Shown piece by piece: positions 19,815 to 39,491 of a stretch of DNA of 39,491 nucleotides (position 1 is its first letter; every line of letters begins with the position of its first letter). The position numbers and the translations under genes were made by a program. A model generated the notes under the pieces. The model did not search any database, was not told the DNA's origin, and worked only from the letters and a program-made list of their open reading frames with translations. The stretch lies in the IMG/VR virus record IMGVR_UViG_3300045988_177631. The stretch is one strand, 5' to 3'. The stretch is from a virus.

Positions 19815-20088
19815 GGCGTTGGCTCTCCATTCGGTCCTCGAGGCGCGACAGCTGCCCCGTCTGTTGGCGCATCATTGCGATGACCTGCCCCATCTGGGCG
19901 GACAGGCGCTCGATCTCGCTGCGACTCACGGCCTCCTTCTGGGCCTCCACGCGGGCCTGCATCACGCGGCGCTCAAGATCGGACAGCTGATCAGACTGCT
20001 TGGTGATGCGCGCTTGAATGGTCGCCACCCACGCCAGAGCGAACGGAGTGAGGATTGATGCCAGACGCTGAAGGTCGTTGAGGTCCAT
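19807..20088 (-). CDS. Membrane-anchored coiled-coil protein (possible holin/antiholin)
   Basis: ORF track 93 aa. One hydrophobic segment ILTPFALAWVATI, then a coiled coil. Confidence 0.45.
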   Translation of the reverse strand: MDLNDLQRLASILTPFALAWVATIQARITKQSDQLSDLERRVMQARVEAQKEAVSRSEIERLSAQMGQVIAMMRQQTGQLSRLEDRMESQRRG

Positions 20089-20140
20089 CTGATGTCGCCT
20101 GTCGCGAAAATGACACGGGCCGGAGATCCCGGCCCGATAG

Positions 20141-20149
20141 ATTCTAGCA
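20141..20149 (-). promoter_or_regulatory. Candidate late promoter, extended -10 TGCTAGAAT
   Basis: The same 9-mer lies upstream of terS (36882-36890). Followed by a 7-bp hairpin at 20117-20135. Confidence 0.4.
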
Positions 20150-20159
20150 CAGGCGGGAT

Positions 20160-20870
20160 TTACGCCTGCTGGCCGATGGCCACCCAGCGCCCCGGCGGGG
20201 GCGAGTGGAACAGCGTGAAGCCGACCACGCGGTTGCCCTCGACCAGGAACTCGTAGCGGGGGTAGTTCACATCCCCTTGCAGCGAAAAGAAGATCACCGG
20301 GTCACGGGTCAGCGCCACTCCGAACCTGTGCGTGCGGTTTGTGATATCACCACCCGGCGGGTTCATCGGGCCGGCCTGCATGATCGGGTTGGATTCGTAC
20401 ACGCCGCCTACCACGCCGATGCGGCGCTCCAGCCCCGGATCCACAAACGAACGGCGCCAGTTCTCGAGGCCGGTGAGACGCCCGTTATGATCAGACCGCA
20501 GGTTGTTGATCGACGTCGTGTTGGCGTTGGCTGAGGCCTGGGCTGTTCTGCCCAGGTTGGCGGCGTCGTTGATCGGCGCCTGCGTCATCCGGGTGATCTC
20601 GGCGCGAGTCGCGTCACGGGTCATCAAGTGGTTGACTGCACTGGATGCCGAGGATGCGTTACCGCCGGTCACGTTGGCCAGGGTTGCCATCGTTGCAACC
20701 TCGTGACCGGTCGTTCGCACAAGACGGTTCCCGATGGACGAGATCCATTCCTGTGATGGCTGGGCGCCGGTCCATGCGGTCAGGTCGCGGGCCAGCTTTC
20801 CGCTGGACGTGACGTTTGTGCGACGCAGCAGCTCGCGCAGTTGATTCTCTTCGGTAGCGGTCAGCGCCAT
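20160..20870 (-). CDS. Tail fiber / receptor-binding protein (distal)
   Basis: ORF track 236 aa. Assigned from its position after the baseplate and fiber genes. Confidence 0.5.
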   Translation of the reverse strand: MALTATEENQLRELLRRTNVTSSGKLARDLTAWTGAQPSQEWISSIGNRLVRTTGHEVATMATLANVTGGNASSASSAVNHLMTRDATRAEITRMTQAPINDAANLGRTAQASANANTTSINNLRSDHNGRLTGLENWRRSFVDPGLERRIGVVGGVYESNPIMQAGPMNPPGGDITNRTHRFGVALTRDPVIFFSLQGDVNYPRYEFLVEGNRVVGFTLFHSPPPGRWVAIGQQA

Positions 20871-34000: not shown

Positions 34001-34973
34001 CGAAGCCCTCCGCCGTCAGCAGGTTGCGGGCCTGTTCGTTGTCCAGCACACCGTGTGACAGCAGGCGATCCAGGGCGGAGGCGATGCGCTCCAGGCGCTG
34101 CGCGCGCTCGGCCTGACTCTCCCGTGTCAGGTCCTCGAACTCGACGGCCTCGCCGGACAGGAACTCCAGGACCGCCGCGACCTGCGTCTCCTGATACTGA
34201 CGAATCTGGGCGCGCCAGTTCTGACTTTCGCCGCTGTTGGCGCCAAGCCCACTGGACACGGCGTCCCCGAACAGGATGCGGGCGGGAATGCCCGAGGCTG
34301 CGCACACGGTCTCCCGGGCGGCCTCGATGGTTGACTGGGCGGCCGACATTTGCGCCGTCTGAATGGTGTAGTCCTCAGCTCCGTCGATCACGACCGTGTT
34401 TCGGACGCCACGAGCAGCATCCACGAGGGCGATTCGCTGCTCGACCAGCTGGCGACCGTTGGGTGTCTGCAGGTAGCGCGACAGGTCCGGGATCTTGTGC
34501 ACCGGTTGTTGTGACCGCTCCAGACCAGCTACGGCCATATCCACGGCCCTCAGGTAACGCTTGATGGCGGCCTTGATGCCATCACGGTCCATCAACCCCT
34601 TCAGCACCATGAACCCATCTTGTGCATACAAGACGTTGTCAACGATGATTTCGACCGGATCCCCCTTGCTCTCGCCGACTGTCGCCGAGCGGACGACTGA
34701 GCAGGTCGAGCGGTTCAGGACGCGGCCAGACTGCAGGATGATCGATTCGCCGTCGCGCTCGGCGCGAGCTAATGCACGAGCTACCGCACGGCTTAACTTT
34801 GATGCCAACTTGTGATTGGTCCTCCAGCCGCTCACAGCGGCCCACGGAAGGATTCCCCAGATACGGCCCAGTCCTTCGCCGCGGTCACGCCAGTCTAGGG
34901 GCGAAAGCCCGGTCTTCGTGAAGACGTCCTCGTAGGCGCCGTCTTGGGTAATGGTCGCAGTCGTATTGATCAC
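33987..34973 (-). CDS. Portal protein
   Basis: ORF track 328 aa. Directly downstream of and overlapping terL. Confidence 0.6.
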   Translation of the reverse strand: MINTTATITQDGAYEDVFTKTGLSPLDWRDRGEGLGRIWGILPWAAVSGWRTNHKLASKLSRAVARALARAERDGESIILQSGRVLNRSTCSVVRSATVGESKGDPVEIIVDNVLYAQDGFMVLKGLMDRDGIKAAIKRYLRAVDMAVAGLERSQQPVHKIPDLSRYLQTPNGRQLVEQRIALVDAARGVRNTVVIDGAEDYTIQTAQMSAAQSTIEAARETVCAASGIPARILFGDAVSSGLGANSGESQNWRAQIRQYQETQVAAVLEFLSGEAVEFEDLTRESQAERAQRLERIASALDRLLSHGVLDNEQARNLLTAEGFDVSA

Positions 34974-36397
34974 AGGAGTCCCTCGAGTTTGAATGCGGCC
35001 GTCTCAGTCAATCGGTTCAGGGCGCGCGAGATGGCGTCAATTGTATCATCGTGCTTGCCAACAGGGGCAGCGGCAAACTCATCCAGCACTGGACGGGCTT
35101 GCTCCGCCGAGCAGACCACGTGGAAGCGCCCGTCCTGCACGATCGAGGACAGTGGGCGAGCACGGGTCATCTTGTCTCCGGTCTCCCTGCTGGTGTGCAC
35201 GGCATACCCCGTGAGGGCGATCGAGTACTGGTCGGCCGCCCGTTTGCCGGCGGCACCAGGATCGATCGGCAGGGACTGCTCGACCAACGGCCCATCCATG
35301 GCGGCCGTCCGCTTGATGGTGGCGTCCACCTTGGCCGAGCCCCACTGGCCACGCACAACGTCCAGCAGGTAGACTCGGCCGGTGTCGTCGTGGATGCCAA
35401 CCAGTGCGCCCACGGTGTAGTCGCCCGCCCCCTCTGTGGCGGCCAAGTCCCAGCCCCGACACAGGCGCAGCTGCGGCAGGATCTCGCCATCCTTGACCAC
35501 CACTATATTAGAGGGGTCCAGATAGCCGCCGGACCGCGGGGCCGGCTGCTGCTGGAGCTGCGATGCCGAGCCGTAGGGTCCAAGCCGGCGCTCCAATGCC
35601 GCAACGGCGTCAGCATCGAATCTCTCCGGGAAGAAGAGCACCCCCTCCGGACCTCCCGTGCGCGGGTCCGTGAACCGCTGGGTGTTGTTGACGAACTTGC
35701 TGTCCCAGCGCATCGGGATGATCAGCTTCTCGTAGGTCGGGTCGGACAAGGCGATAGCCGCCGGATCCGACTCGTGGATCCGCTGCATGATCATCACGAT
35801 GGCGCTCTTCCGGTCATTGACCCGACTCGGAACTGTCTCGTTGAAGATCCGACCAGCCTCTTCGATGGCGGCGCGGCTGAACGCATCTTCCACGGTCATC
35901 GGATCGTCGATGATCACCCGGTCGCCCCGCTCCCCGGTCATGTTCCGGAATGCCATGCACACGCGTTGGCCGTAGGCCGTCGTCTCGAAGTTGATCTTCG
36001 AGTTCTGGTCCTTGGTCAGCTCAACGTGAGGGAAGAGGCTCCGGTACTCCGGGCTCTGCACCAGCCGCCGCATCTTGCGGGCGTCACGGGCCGAGAGCTG
36101 GGTGTTGTGGGCCACGCCGATGAACTTCAGGTTCGGTCGCCCGCAGGCCCACTCCCACGCTGGCCACATGACTGACACAAGCAGGCTCTTCATCGAGCCC
36201 GGGGGCACATTGATGACCAGACGCGTGATCTCGCCGCGTGACACGGCCTCCAGGTGCTCGCACATGGCGTCCAGGGCCCAACCCCAGGCGATCGGGCGGT
36301 CGTTCTCCAGGACCGGCCAGAAGACCCCCACGAAGTTCCTCAGGCTGCGGATAGAGTACTCCCGCAGCAACTGAGTGGCGAGCACATCAGCTTTCAC
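34970..36397 (-). CDS. terL: Terminase large subunit
   Basis: ORF track 475 aa. Walker A-like VPPGSMKS, Walker B RVIIDD and C-terminal nuclease motif GKHDDTIDA. Confidence 0.85.
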   Translation of the reverse strand: MKADVLATQLLREYSIRSLRNFVGVFWPVLENDRPIAWGWALDAMCEHLEAVSRGEITRLVINVPPGSMKSLLVSVMWPAWEWACGRPNLKFIGVAHNTQLSARDARKMRRLVQSPEYRSLFPHVELTKDQNSKINFETTAYGQRVCMAFRNMTGERGDRVIIDDPMTVEDAFSRAAIEEAGRIFNETVPSRVNDRKSAIVMIMQRIHESDPAAIALSDPTYEKLIIPMRWDSKFVNNTQRFTDPRTGGPEGVLFFPERFDADAVAALERRLGPYGSASQLQQQPAPRSGGYLDPSNIVVVKDGEILPQLRLCRGWDLAATEGAGDYTVGALVGIHDDTGRVYLLDVVRGQWGSAKVDATIKRTAAMDGPLVEQSLPIDPGAAGKRAADQYSIALTGYAVHTSRETGDKMTRARPLSSIVQDGRFHVVCSAEQARPVLDEFAAAPVGKHDDTIDAISRALNRLTETAAFKLEGLL

Positions 36398-36852
36398 AGG
36401 ACGGGCGCCCGCCCGATAGCGGCAAGGGCCTCCTTGATGTTGGCGGACTCCGTGTTCGACAGGTCCATGGCCTCAGCCTTTGTGGTAGCCCCACCAGTCA
36501 CGTCCAGCAACCTCCCCAGAGCCTGCAAGCGGACGGACTCGGACTCGGCTCCCAGTGCCAGCTGATACAGCCCCTGCATGGCCCGCGCACGGATGGCGGC
36601 CATGTTGGCCTCGGTAACCTCCAGCTGACGCAGCGACAGCTCGTTCTGCACGTCGTCGCGGTCGAGCAGAATCTCGGCCACCTGTGCCTCGCGCCCCTTC
36701 CACACGCCCAGCCGACGCAAGGCCTTCCTGCCGTTGTAGTCAACCAGGTAGGTGGCCACGAAGTCGTCCAGCGTCACCCCCTGGAAGATGTCTTCCCACG
36801 GATGTTCGCGAAGAGCCGTCTCGTTGATGGGAGGGAGATGCGGAGGTTTCAT
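36394..36852 (-). CDS. terS: Terminase small subunit
   Basis: ORF track 152 aa. GTGA-coupled to terL. Has an N-terminal helix-turn-helix-like segment. Confidence 0.6.
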   Translation of the reverse strand: MKPPHLPPINETALREHPWEDIFQGVTLDDFVATYLVDYNGRKALRRLGVWKGREAQVAEILLDRDDVQNELSLRQLEVTEANMAAIRARAMQGLYQLALGAESESVRLQALGRLLDVTGGATTKAEAMDLSNTESANIKEALAAIGRAPVL

Positions 36853-36881
36853 CGGGAATCAGACGTTCGGTGCTGCCCACA

Positions 36882-36890
36882 ATTCTAGCA
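36882..36890 (-). promoter_or_regulatory. Candidate late promoter, extended -10 TGCTAGAAT upstream of terS
   Basis: Read directly. No good -35, which suggests activator dependence. Confidence 0.4.
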
Positions 36891-36951
36891 TCTGGAGTGC
36901 ACGGCCTCGCCCGGGACGACCCGTGGTCGCGGCCAGGTCAAAGGCGCCGAA

Positions 36952-36967
36952 CTGTATGCGCATACAG
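36952..36967. promoter_or_regulatory. LexA (SOS) box CTGTATGCGCATACAG
   Basis: Perfect 16-bp palindrome fitting CTGT-N8-ACAG. As I recall it, differs at one base from the E. coli recA operator core CTGTATGAGCATACAG. Confidence 0.7.
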
Positions 36968-36999
36968 CTCCAAAATGAGAATGACAATCCTGATCAAGC

Positions 37000-37021
37000 T
37001 GTAACAAGGTGTATCGTTACA
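37000..37021. promoter_or_regulatory. Operator-like inverted repeat TGTAAC-N10-GTTACA in the AT-rich island
   Basis: Read directly. Further half-sites lie at 37038-37043 and 37094-37099. The 13-mer GTGT(A/G)TCGTTACA is repeated at 37009 and 37087. Confidence 0.4.
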
Positions 37022-37112
37022 ATTTGTAGGACTTTTTTGTAACAGAAATTTTGGACCTAAGTTATTGATTCTGAACGATTTAAAAAGTGTGTCGTTACAT
37101 TTAACGTAGGTA

Positions 37113-37167
37113 CCCCTCTTTGGAAAAGCAGACTTTTTATATAGTCTTCCCTAAAGGGGCTTTTGTT
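37113..37167 (+). terminator. Candidate compound hairpin/terminator in the AT-rich island
   Basis: CCCCTcTTTGG pairs with CCcTAAAGGGG around an inner AGACT/AGTCT stem, followed by cttttgtt. Confidence 0.3.
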
Positions 37168-37335
37168 AAATGAATGTCAAATCTAGATGAGAACAATTTA
37201 CTAAACATCCGGAGGTGACGCCCCTCTCTCGGGCCTTTGCCCCTCCCTTTGCCTCGCGCTCGAGTGACCGGTATGCCGTTCGCCGCGCCGTGGCCGCCGC
37301 TCATCAGCCGCCTTGCCCCCTTGTGATCGCAGGGG

Positions 37336-37364
37336 TTGACAACCGTGTGCGAGGCGTGTACAGT
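37336..37364 (+). promoter_or_regulatory. Sigma70-like promoter TTGACA-N17-TACAGT (P1 of the ORF-free region)
   Basis: Read directly. The spacer carries TGTGCGAGG. Confidence 0.6.
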
Positions 37365-37370
37365 TCACCC

Positions 37371-38150
37371 ATCGACAGCGACAACGCTGGTCCGATGGCA
37401 GGGTCGGGTCCCAGACGGGAGCAACCGCAGACCTGGAGCCGATGGCGGATAGAAGGCGGAGTCAAAGTCCAAGGAATCAAGGTGCTTGACAGCGTGCAGA
37501 GACTCTGTCACAATGCCAAGCATCAAGCGGTAGCACCCGGCAACGCGTCGTGTGTGGATTGAAACTGAAGGTGAAATCCCGGGTGCTTTGAACGAGATCA
37601 TTGAACGGCCGGTCGGGTACAAGGCGATGCGAGTCTCAGGCTAGAGCGCGAGGCCTCCTAACTCCGGCAATGCAGCACCAAACGAGCACAGAACGTGGCG
37701 GTAGGAACAATCCTTGGGGTCAGAGGCCCCGAGCTCTAAATCCGCCAAAAGGGCAGCACAAGCCGCAGGGACTGAGTCTGGCTACCCCCGAAAGGGGGCG
37801 CAGGGTGACAAGGGAACCTGGGACCGCGCGTAACGGCGGGCCTGGCGCGAAGTCAGGGATTCCGACGATTGTGGTAGGCTGTAACCGTGTATCCCGTCAC
37901 GGGGTCGTACCGCCGCCAGCATCGGGGGCTAGCGCTGGCGAGCATCAATCTCCGGACAGTAGACGTTGACGCGTCTACTGGCTCAAGCACAGAGGGGTGC
38001 ACACCACTGTGTCAGGCCTAACGGAGGCAGGTTAAGTGCGTAATACCCGGGACAAATGAGCGGCACACAGAGCCCTCCTACCACGTCAATGGCTGGAGGT
38101 GACGTGCAAAGCGCTGCGGCCCGGGTTTCCTGCCTTTCATCTCCACCGAC
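37371..38150 (+). ncRNA. Candidate large structured non-coding RNA or long leader, class unknown
   Basis: No credible ORF on either strand, two early-type promoters facing in, and many GC-rich hairpins including a GNRA loop. The boundaries are approximate. Confidence 0.35.
37486..37514 (+). promoter_or_regulatory. Sigma70-like promoter TTGACA-N17-CACAAT (P2 of the ORF-free region)
   Basis: Read directly. Confidence 0.6.
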
Positions 38151-38158
38151 GAGCGGTA

Positions 38159-38188
38159 TTGACGCGACACTCATCCATGCGTTATGAT
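38159..38188 (+). promoter_or_regulatory. Sigma70-like promoter TTGACG-N18-TATGAT for the primase-helicase gene
   Basis: Read directly. Lies about 35 nt upstream of ATG 38224. Confidence 0.55.
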
Positions 38189-38223
38189 TCGCGTATCGTC
38201 AACGCTCACATGAGGCCTTCGGT

Positions 38224-39491
38224 ATGAAACTGTCACAACTGATCAAACACTGGGGGGTTGCTCGCAATCCCGCGAATGGTGACAAGCGCCCCTGGGGCAT
38301 CTCTCCGTCATCGGGCGGATGGATGCCGCTCTCAACCACTGACTTGCGTGGCTGGATGTCCGCCAAGGACGCGTGGGCCGCCGCCAAGAAGCTCGGTCCG
38401 TCTGCCCGAATCGGCGCCCTGCTGACCCCGGGCTGCGGCGTAACCGTGGTCGATATGGACGAGGACTATGCCTCGGACCAGATGGCCATGGTCGAGTGGA
38501 TGGACTCCTACGCCGAGATCTCCTCGAGCGGCCGTGGCACGCACATCTTCGTGCAGGCCAACCTGGCAGGCGGCGTCCGCGACGCGAAGCAGGACATCGA
38601 GGTCTATGGCCAGGAACGGTTCATCATCGTCACTGGCAACGTGATCAACGGCTGGGACGTGGTTGAGCCGCGTCAGGCCAAGATCGACCGCCTGGTGGCT
38701 CGTCTGGGCGGCCTGAAGTCCACGGTCAAGCCGGTTGCAGCCACTGTCACGGCCGGGGCCTCCGATGAGGCCTGTCGCGCCGCCCTGCAACGCGTGTGGA
38801 AGCAGGACAGGATCAAGAGGCTCTGGAAGGGCGACTGGCAGGCCATGGGCTACCCGTCGCAGTCCGAGGCCGATATGGCTCTGATCGAGGCACTGTGCTG
38901 GGCCACGGAAGATGACGCTGTGGTTGCCGCGACGTTCCGGAAGTCTGGTCTTGGCCAGCGCCAGAAGGCCCAGACCAATTACGTTGAGCGGACGATCAAT
39001 AGCCTGCGGAAGCGCCGCGAAGTCGGATCCGAGTACACGGAGATGGCTCATGCCATCGCCGGTATGGCATACTCCGAGACGTTGGTTGCCAAGGAAGCCG
39101 ATAAGGCTCAGGAGGTTGAGGCTAGGATGAGTCAAATTGACCCGCGGGACGCAATGATCCAGCGCTTGCTGGATCAGGTAACGGCGCTCACGGCCCAGGT
39201 TGCCGAACTGACCAAGCAGCTGGCCGAGGCTCGCGCGCCAAAGCCGGAGCCCGAGCCGCCGTCACCCGCTCGTTACACGGTCGATGAGAACGGTGTGATT
39301 GAAGAGGTTGACGAGGCTGCTGAAGAGATCGGCGAGGAAGAAGAGGGCGAGGCCGTCGTCGAGCAGTCCGACTGGATGGACCGGATGTTCGCGCGCGCCA
39401 ATGAGATGGCTCAGTCCGGCGAGCTCGACGTCCTGAAGGAGACGAGTGAGGAAGTGCCTGACATCGAGGATACGGTGGCTGTGATCAAGAC
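38224..39491 (+). CDS. Primase-polymerase/helicase fusion, N-terminal part (open at the window end; continues at 3..1400)
   Basis: ATG with gagg 8 nt upstream. I translated the frame to 39491 without meeting a stop. Prim-pol-like VVDMDED and SSGRGTHIF motifs. Absent from the ORF track because it has no stop inside the window. Confidence 0.8.
   Translation, partial: MKLSQLIKHWGVARNPANGDKRPWGISPSSGGWMPLSTTDLRGWMSAKDAWAAAKKLGPSARIGALLTPGCGVTVVDMDEDYASDQMAMVEWMDSYAEISSSGRGTHIFVQANLAGGVRDAKQDIEVYGQERFIIVTGNVINGWDVVEPRQAKIDRLVARLGGLKSTVKPVAATVTAGASDEACRAALQRVWKQDRIKRLWKGDWQAMGYPSQSEADMALIEALCWATEDDAVVAATFRKSGLGQRQKAQTNYVERTINSLRKRREVGSEYTEMAHAIAGMAYSETLVAKEADKAQEVEARMSQIDPRDAMIQRLLDQVTALTAQVAELTKQLAEARAPKPEPEPPSPARYTVDENGVIEEVDEAAEEIGEEEEGEAVVEQSDWMDRMFARANEMAQSGELDVLKETSEEVPDIEDTVAVIK
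39437..39491. repeat. 55-nt terminal direct repeat, exact copy of 1..55
   Basis: Read directly. Confidence 0.95.

Follow-up and report, generated by a model that had tools for sequence, protein, structure and literature searches.

The question raised by this locus is whether a phage in which no repressor gene is recognised carries an operator for the LexA protein of its host, and what such an operator would control. The window, i.e. the whole 39,491-nucleotide stretch analysed here, is the IMG/VR virus record IMGVR_UViG_3300045988_177631. Its plus- and minus-strand transcription units diverge from a 1.37-kb region (36853-38223) without coding signature, and inside this region lies the perfect palindrome CTGTATGCGCATACAG. 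An initial annotation, made from the sequence alone, had read it as a LexA box and as the switch of an episomal prophage held silent by host LexA. Our analysis points to another role: the box is a putative host LexA operator that would modulate the late operon led by terS as an accessory input, an interpretation to which we give roughly an even chance. For LexA as a repressor maintaining an episomal prophage the data give no support.

The palindrome, at 36952-36967, is in sequence and coordinates exactly as first annotated. It fits the beta/gamma-proteobacterial dyad CTGT-N8-ACAG (16 bp, within a 20-bp site resembling TACTGTATATATATACAGTA), and a pattern count over the window returned this one site, as had been noted by eye. 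The recA box of E. coli is TACTGTATGAGCATACAGTA (PMC3009722), and the 16-bp core of the phage box differs from it by a single base, which bears out the likeness first noted. The bare pattern is not significant, with 0.55 occurrences expected per window and at least one in 40% of shuffles. Because the loose pattern is unremarkable by itself, full 20-mers were scored by a Lewis-type heterology index (HI), using a matrix of 18 E. coli LexA boxes (PMC3009722, Table 4). This matrix is that of E. coli and not that of the host. On this matrix, AACTGTATGCGCATACAGCT has an HI of 10.0, the best in the genome and within the range of the training sites (1.8-12.2), while the second-best 20-mer has 17.7. 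None of 1000 composition-matched random genomes (first-order Markov) reaches 10.0. A second matrix, of 27 sites, gives 8.0 for the box and 14.0 for the runner-up, and 1 of 500 random genomes is as good. The box is thus inside the range of known sites and well apart from the genomic background, as measured with E. coli rather than host sites. The match exceeds chance, and the idea that the palindrome arose by pure chance is hardly credible.

With TerL, TerS and DNA patterns as queries, more than 30 loci of the same phage family were gathered from IMG/VR, from contigs of metagenomes and from a protein collection. All family members come from metagenomes (the Zhang 2015 rheumatoid-arthritis oral/gut cohort, the Human Microbiome Project and other human samples). 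Their identity to the window is 83-96% for TerL and 82-94% for TerS, and only about 70-75% for intergenic DNA. Twenty distinct versions (haplotypes) of the stretch between a conserved TTGTTACAACT block and the late promoter were compared, and CTG-N10-CAG is present at the homologous position in 19 of them. The homologous site is the top LexA-matrix match of each locus, over the 4-13 kb available per locus. The variants found in the family are CTGTATGCGCATACAG, CTGTACGCACATCCAG, CTGTACGCGTATCCAG, CTGTAGAGACGAACAG, CTGTACGGGCATACAG and CTGTACTGTTGCACAG. The outer tetranucleotides carry 1.85 bit of information versus about 0.8 bit in the flanks, a comparison that is partly selection-biased, as the boxes were located via CTG-N10-CAG. 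The interior also diverges, and its palindromy is not preserved among the relatives (e.g. CTGTAGAGACGAACAG). The commonest change at an outer position is that between ACAG and CCAG, the same as in natural E. coli sites (26 A : 10 C). Because the inner palindrome is not kept, a hairpin or cruciform is unlikely to have left this footprint; it is the pattern to be expected if the bases touched by a dimeric helix-turn-helix protein are under purifying selection. These data support the view that the box is a phylogenetically conserved and statistically exceptional match to the beta/gamma-proteobacterial LexA box.

What such a site would control can be judged from its position. The terS start codon follows 100 bp downstream of the box, with nothing else between them, which would place the box in the control region of the terS-led operon. 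The initial annotation had located it between the late operon, with an extended -10 at 36882-36890, and the AT-rich island and early promoters. This context was confirmed, the AT-rich island spanning about 36970-37200. The late promoter has the consensus TGSTAGAAT and is kept in all relatives; transcription from it is predicted to begin near 36875, which is 24 nt ahead of the terS ATG. The spacer between box and promoter is unalignable in sequence across lineages. Its length changes in discrete steps, which put the box centre at about -64, -74 or -84. In detail, the centre is at -63.5/-64.5 from the predicted start in 6 haplotypes (at least 4 lineages), at -73.5/-74.5 in 10 and at -84.5 in the window, with outliers at -66.5 and -76.5. 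Phasing at a 10.5-bp period gives R = 0.80, with a Monte Carlo p of 0.001 if 10 lineages are counted and of 0.008 if, conservatively, only 7 are; this statistic is inflated by shared ancestry and refers to a start that is predicted, not mapped. On the other side, the distance from the box to the edge of a conserved AT-rich block of TGTAACA repeats is a constant 27-29 nt across relatives; the block may be an origin or an array of sites for a regulator. The geometry suggests that the late promoter stands in a face-of-helix relation to whatever occupies the box and the block.

The window has two exact copies of the 9-mer TGCTAGAAT, each on the late strand, and we take this element to be a late-type promoter of the phage. 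No LexA-like box was found near the second copy (20141) with either matrix. This copy may be a separately controlled lysis promoter or an attenuator. Within 20089-20160 on the minus strand, a GC hairpin (GGGCCGG-GATCT-CCGGCCC) comes after it and then a run rich in T, ahead of an ATG at 20088.

Both A-type genomes, as we call those related to the window in their arrangement, and a B-type sub-lineage were found among the relatives. In the most distant A-type relative, L014 (TerL 83%, TerS 50%), terS is preceded by a tandem pair of CTGA-N8-ACAG boxes. An extended -10-like element, TGGTAAGTT, puts the predicted start inside box 1, with the boxes on and just past the start, and as predicted this is the classical layout of a promoter with a repressor operator. 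A search for relatives of L014 returned only L014 itself. Two perfect CTGT-N8-ACAG boxes, 46 bp apart, are also present in L047 (800-815 and 846-861), which belongs to a distant group (TerL about 41-42%) whose nearest genomic relative is a Sutterella prophage.

We suggest that non-integrating phages of about 39 kb in the human mouth could have taken up and retained a host LexA operator of the beta/gamma-proteobacterial type. It would have been placed at the junction between the TGTAACA-repeat control or origin block and the late operon that runs from terS to lysis. In an undamaged cell, a LexA dimer would sit on the box. DNA damage, or intermediates of phage replication, would activate RecA, whereupon LexA would cleave itself and the box would be vacated. 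LexA would act from upstream and on one helical face, e.g. by hindering an upstream contact or an activating complex, and not by classical occlusion; we suggest this because the box is about 64, 74 or 84 nt before the predicted start, on roughly the same face of the helix. The functional target would be the terS-led late operon, since it is the only transcription unit on that side and the L014 boxes cover its predicted start. Host LexA would be the most likely binder, because there is one site per genome and it matches this global regulator of the host at the contact positions. A single site is what would be expected of a hijacked host factor, and no phage-encoded LexA homologue was detected by phmmer with E. 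coli LexA against all 642 six-frame open reading frames (ORFs). LexA as the binder, the type of LexA in the host, the late operon as the target and the sign of the effect are what we infer. In a more specific form, LexA would be a helically phased upstream anti-activator or activator at a -35-less late promoter next to the origin block, in a phage without detectable lysogeny genes that is apparently virulent or at most in a carrier state, and its self-cleavage would time or boost late expression; this form we put forward tentatively and consider on balance unlikely.

The mechanism presupposes a host with the corresponding type of LexA. The host is likely proteobacterial, judging from the sigma-70-type promoters and from the relatives of the primase and of TerL; the latter belong to phages of Rhizobium, Paracoccus, Aeromonas and Bordetella and to a Sutterella prophage. 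An i-spanin-like protein, with a transmembrane segment and a coiled coil, may indicate a diderm host. Lautropia, Cardiobacterium and Ottowia would be conjectural candidates. One copy of the Neisseria DNA-uptake core, GCCGTCTGAA, is present at 34354-34363 on the plus strand (0.14 expected; at least one in 12% of shuffles), which does not amount to evidence of a Neisseria host.

Several observations weigh against a LexA operator at the late operon. The site can be lost: in L010 the box is deleted while the TGTAACA block, terS and the late promoter are retained, and it is weakened to CTGC in L013/L132 and, with a further change, in L002. In the B-type sub-lineage (L009/L131, a 33.2-kb genome, and L116), no LexA-like site was found anywhere in the sequence examined. 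In these genomes, terS comes immediately after the beta-helix gene and is read in the same direction, GATGGTAGAAT is kept ahead of terS, and TerS and TerL are near-identical, while the AT-rich block upstream of the primase carries other repeats, seven copies of CTTTTAGCA. The late promoter is kept in L009 and in the box-less L010. With a different repeat block and no box in the B-type, the box tracks neither the origin nor the late promoter. It is non-essential, because L010, the B-type genomes and the lysis promoter at 20141 are all without it. The comparison shows it to be, as far as can be read from the genomes, an accessory input and not an essential late activator, an origin element or a pac site. 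The position is also unusual. A LexA operator would overlap or abut the -35, the -10 or the start of its promoter, which is not seen in the window, and only L014 has a predicted overlap; classical repression by LexA does not use centres between -64 and -85. As the initial annotation had found, there is no convincing promoter directly over the box: scans and alignments of the window and close relatives revealed no sigma-70-like promoter on either strand. Phasing by helical turns is usually a mark of upstream activators and less so of LexA, and it might equally well concern the adjacent conserved repeat block instead of the box. Due to the GC-rich interior of the box, its score on the E. coli matrix lies in the weak-to-middle range, and several relatives have 12-16. 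Finally, the nearest TerL relatives include alphaproteobacterial phages (Rhizobium, Paracoccus). LexA of alphaproteobacteria reads a different motif, and for such a host CTGT-N8-ACAG would be of the wrong class. A lipobox o-spanin, which would back a Gram-negative host, was looked for and not found. Promoter candidates over the box, such as TTCGCA-16-TACGCA, were rejected for want of the -7 T, and so was a sigma-54-like reading, in which the GC dinucleotide is missing.

The same geometry would suit a different dimeric regulator, of phage or host, that acts as a class I-like activator of the late promoter, with the likeness to LexA coincidental or convergent. CRP activates from class I sites at -61.5, -71.5 and -82.5, and the late activators C of Mu and Ogr of P2 act on -35-less promoters. 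Like class I sites, the box is a dyad upstream of a -35-less extended -10 promoter, on one helix face, and its distance shifts by whole helical turns, with centres at about -64, -74 and -84 from a predicted start. The CRP-type positions are within 2-3 bp of these centres. About 20 unannotated early ORFs might conceal such a regulator, and in GIL01 a LexA-like phage protein activates a late promoter (PMC6182141). However, a class I site would be needed wherever its promoter is used, and the promoter is without it in L010, in L009 and the other B-type genomes and at 20141-20149, which argues against a general or essential late activator site. Unlike the sites of CRP, Ogr and C, the box is dispensable and has the sequence of a LexA box; its match to the LexA matrix is far above chance and is kept across lineages exactly at the LexA-contact positions, and the 642 six-frame ORFs encode no LexA-like protein. 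We consider such an activator unlikely. A structural or cis-acting element of the origin or of packaging, without any link to LexA, is less probable still; it might be a cruciform, a site recognised by an initiator or (as pac) by TerS, or an element marking the edge of the origin. The constant spacing to the TGTAACA block and the location 100 bp upstream of terS would fit it; some pac phages, such as SPP1, carry pac elements in such a position near terS, and the set of TerL, portal and Mu-F suggests headful packaging. Against this, only the outer CTG(T) and (A)CAG are kept and the inner palindrome is lost (CTGTAGAGACGAACAG), which points to protein contacts one helical turn apart. The element is moreover gone from L010, where block, terS and promoter remain, and from the B-type genomes with their near-identical TerS and TerL.

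The model of the initial annotation, a repressor-less episomal prophage in which host LexA on the box silences the early genes and replication until SOS, as in GIL01, is likewise improbable in our view. It has in its favour that, as first annotated, no CI/Cro-like or other repressor, antirepressor or integrase is found by Pfam and PHROGs among about 45 ORFs, with about 20 ORFs unannotated. In addition, the 27-29 nt between box and putative origin block make LexA gating of origin firing conceivable. The family is not an integrating prophage and was never seen integrated, because homologues of three proteins (endolysin, TerS and a tail protein), all of metagenomic origin, fall in well over 100 clusters, nearly every one with a longest contig of 37-40 kb. 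This pattern fits a virulent lifestyle as well as an episomal one. The single exception is a TerS homologue of L116 on a 101,853-bp contig (ENA ERZ28634799, scaffold_106), which may be an integrated copy, a concatemer or a chimera and could reveal the host. What speaks against the model is the box itself, which is single, dispensable within the family and on the late-operon side. It lies 370, 520 and 1190 bp from P1, P2 and P3, the three strong predicted early promoters of sigma-70 type on the plus strand, and none of these has a LexA-like site (genome floor 14.0 on the 27-site and 17.7 on the 18-site matrix), whereas a GIL01-type switch would have boxes within its early or replication promoters, GIL01 itself requiring boxes in its own P1 and P3 plus gp7. 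The -10 of the phage P1 was tried as a LexA half-site (ACAGTTC, inverted repeat I4) and rejected, as it is TATAGT in relatives. Partition, maintenance or lysogeny genes were not detected in the annotation of the window, in which about 20 ORFs are unannotated, and by its primase relatives the replication module is similar to those of lytic phages of Pseudomonas, Stenotrophomonas and Variovorax. A TerL scan of 185,579 representative genomes revealed no close prophage relatives, the best matches having 42-44% identity (Sutterella, Kaistia).

A host LexA operator acting on the late operon can be compared with several known systems. With E. coli-type operators such as that of recA, the box shares the core but for one base, the CTGT-N8-ACAG dyad, the A/T flanks, the HI range and the ACAG/CCAG variation. 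Unlike these, it lies off any -35, -10 or start, has a GC-rich interior and is carried by a phage. Temperate phages have regulators or antirepressors under LexA control, as in tum of coliphage 186, the Gifsy and Fels antirepressors and rstA of CTX-phi. These phages, like the phage studied here under our reading, use host LexA as the SOS sensor. However, their boxes cover part of the promoter from which a small regulatory gene is expressed, and they have a repressor of their own, whereas no ORF near the phage box is conserved, i.e. there is no adjacent small regulatory gene. Another parallel is SaPIbov1. S. aureus LexA represses its operon I, with a terS homologue and capsid-size genes (Ubeda et al. 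2007, as summarised in PMC11442139). In both cases a host LexA box lies ahead of a terS-led packaging operon, coupling packaging to SOS, putatively so in the phage. SaPIbov1 is a Gram-positive satellite island whose Cheo-type box, AGAACTTAAGTTCG, is a promoter operator, while the window is a complete phage with a box of proteobacterial type in an upstream position and with a predicted function. In GIL01, LexA and gp7 jointly repress P1 as well as the late promoter P3, for which the LexA-like gp6 is the activator (PMC6182141, PMC4551915). Both phages are without a classical CI repressor or integrase and have LexA boxes in control regions, including that of the late promoter. GIL01 alone has several boxes within promoters, the co-repressor gp7 and the activator gp6 and is a proven plasmid prophage; the phage has one box, upstream of the late promoter only, and no homologue of gp6 or LexA was found; small proteins like gp7 are beyond recognition by sequence, and many small ORFs of the phage are unannotated. 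A packaging operon led by terS (SaPIbov1) and the late promoter of a phage (GIL01) are thus already known to be under LexA control, and what is unusual here is the geometry.

The features of the window are collected in Table 1.

Table 1. Position of the LexA-type box and of the surrounding control elements and genes in the window.
Feature	Position	Strand	Remarks
LexA-type SOS box CTGTATGCGCATACAG	36952..36967	.	Perfect 16-bp palindrome; 20-mer 36950-36969 = AACTGTATGCGCATACAGCT
Extended -10 late promoter TGCTAGAAT (predicted)	36882..36890	-	Without -35; TGGTAGAAT in relatives
Second exact TGCTAGAAT	20141..20149	-	Between last tail gene and lysis cassette
Variable spacer, box to late promoter	36891..36951	-	GC-rich, hairpin-prone; 61 nt (40-53 nt in relatives)
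terS (Terminase_2)	36394..36852	-	First late-operon gene
TGTAACA/CGTTACA repeat block	36993..37110	.	Conserved, AT-rich; repeats 37000-37006, 37015-37021, 37038-37044, 37093-37099
Early promoter P1 (predicted)	37336..37364	+	TTGACA-17-TACAGT; TATAGT in relatives; conserved
Promoter-like P2	37486..37514	+	TTGACA-17-CACAAT, TG-extended; only in window and L004 lineage
Promoter-like P3	38159..38188	+	TTGACG-18-TATGAT; just upstream of primase gene
Primase/helicase ORF	38224..39491, then over junction to position 1400 of circle	+	870 aa

The first and last 55 bases of the window are identical (1-55 = 39437-39491), which shows that the assembly closes into a circle of 39,436 bp. On the plus strand, the primase/helicase is followed by PDDEXK, AAA_24, DUF669, a Cas4-like exonuclease, a DEAD-box helicase, a beta-helix protein and a dNMP kinase, and the gene run, with many unannotated ORFs among the named genes, extends to about 19.4 kb. 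The late operon on the minus strand contains terS, terL (Terminase_6C), portal, Mu-F, major capsid, tail, tape measure, tail fibre and lysis genes and ends distally with an M15 endolysin at about 19401. No phage record matched 35000-39491 in megablast, and the nearest TerL and primase relatives by tblastn have at most 43% identity. At the distal end of the tail module, a 236-aa protein (20160-20870, minus strand) has homologues in more than 100 clusters with 43-100% identity, nearly all on contigs of 37-40 kb. The number of these clusters shows that the phage family is abundant in human metagenomes, and the diversification of the protein suggests a determinant of host range.

Beyond the repeat block, a short palindrome at 37146-37160 reads CCCTAAAGGGG in the window, CTCTATAGAG in L001/L003/L012 and CACTCTATAGAGGTG in L006, i.e. 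with compensatory substitutions. It adjoins a conserved TGTCAAA direct repeat and may be a protein site or a DNA or RNA hairpin of the origin region. Between P1 and the primase ATG, a non-coding stretch of about 850 nt (37365-38223, plus strand) contains conserved blocks with covariation. RNAalifold on a 9-sequence alignment, tested for 37942-38141, gave 58 pairs, of which 14 have compensatory double changes. Examples of the covarying helices are CAGTAGAC/GTCTACTG vs CAGCAGCC/GGCTGTTG, and GGCC/GGCC vs TCTGA/TCAGA vs GAGC/GCTC. At gathering thresholds, Rfam has no match, including in this stretch, which is probably an undescribed structured leader or non-coding RNA of the phage family. Directly downstream of P2, at 37530-37565 on the plus strand, there is a sub-threshold match to Rfam CRISPR-DR9 (31.4 bits, E = 8.7e-5; gathering 45), ending in GTGGATTGAAAC, which resembles type I-C repeats. 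In four relatives no such match was found at E <= 0.01, and the stretch could be chance or a solitary repeat-like RNA.

If LexA binds the box, an abundant and uncultured family of human oral phages would sense the SOS response directly at its packaging and late operon. Antibiotics or DNA-damaging stress in the mouth could then alter phage output without classical prophage induction. The geometry, a single upstream box on one helix face beside a -35-less extended -10 promoter, is atypical of LexA repression, so the box might turn out to be a borrowed operator of the ordinary kind, or LexA might act here in a new way. Should the phased upstream arrangement prove true, it would be a non-canonical, position-dependent action of LexA, in which the SOS signal is used outside lysogeny.

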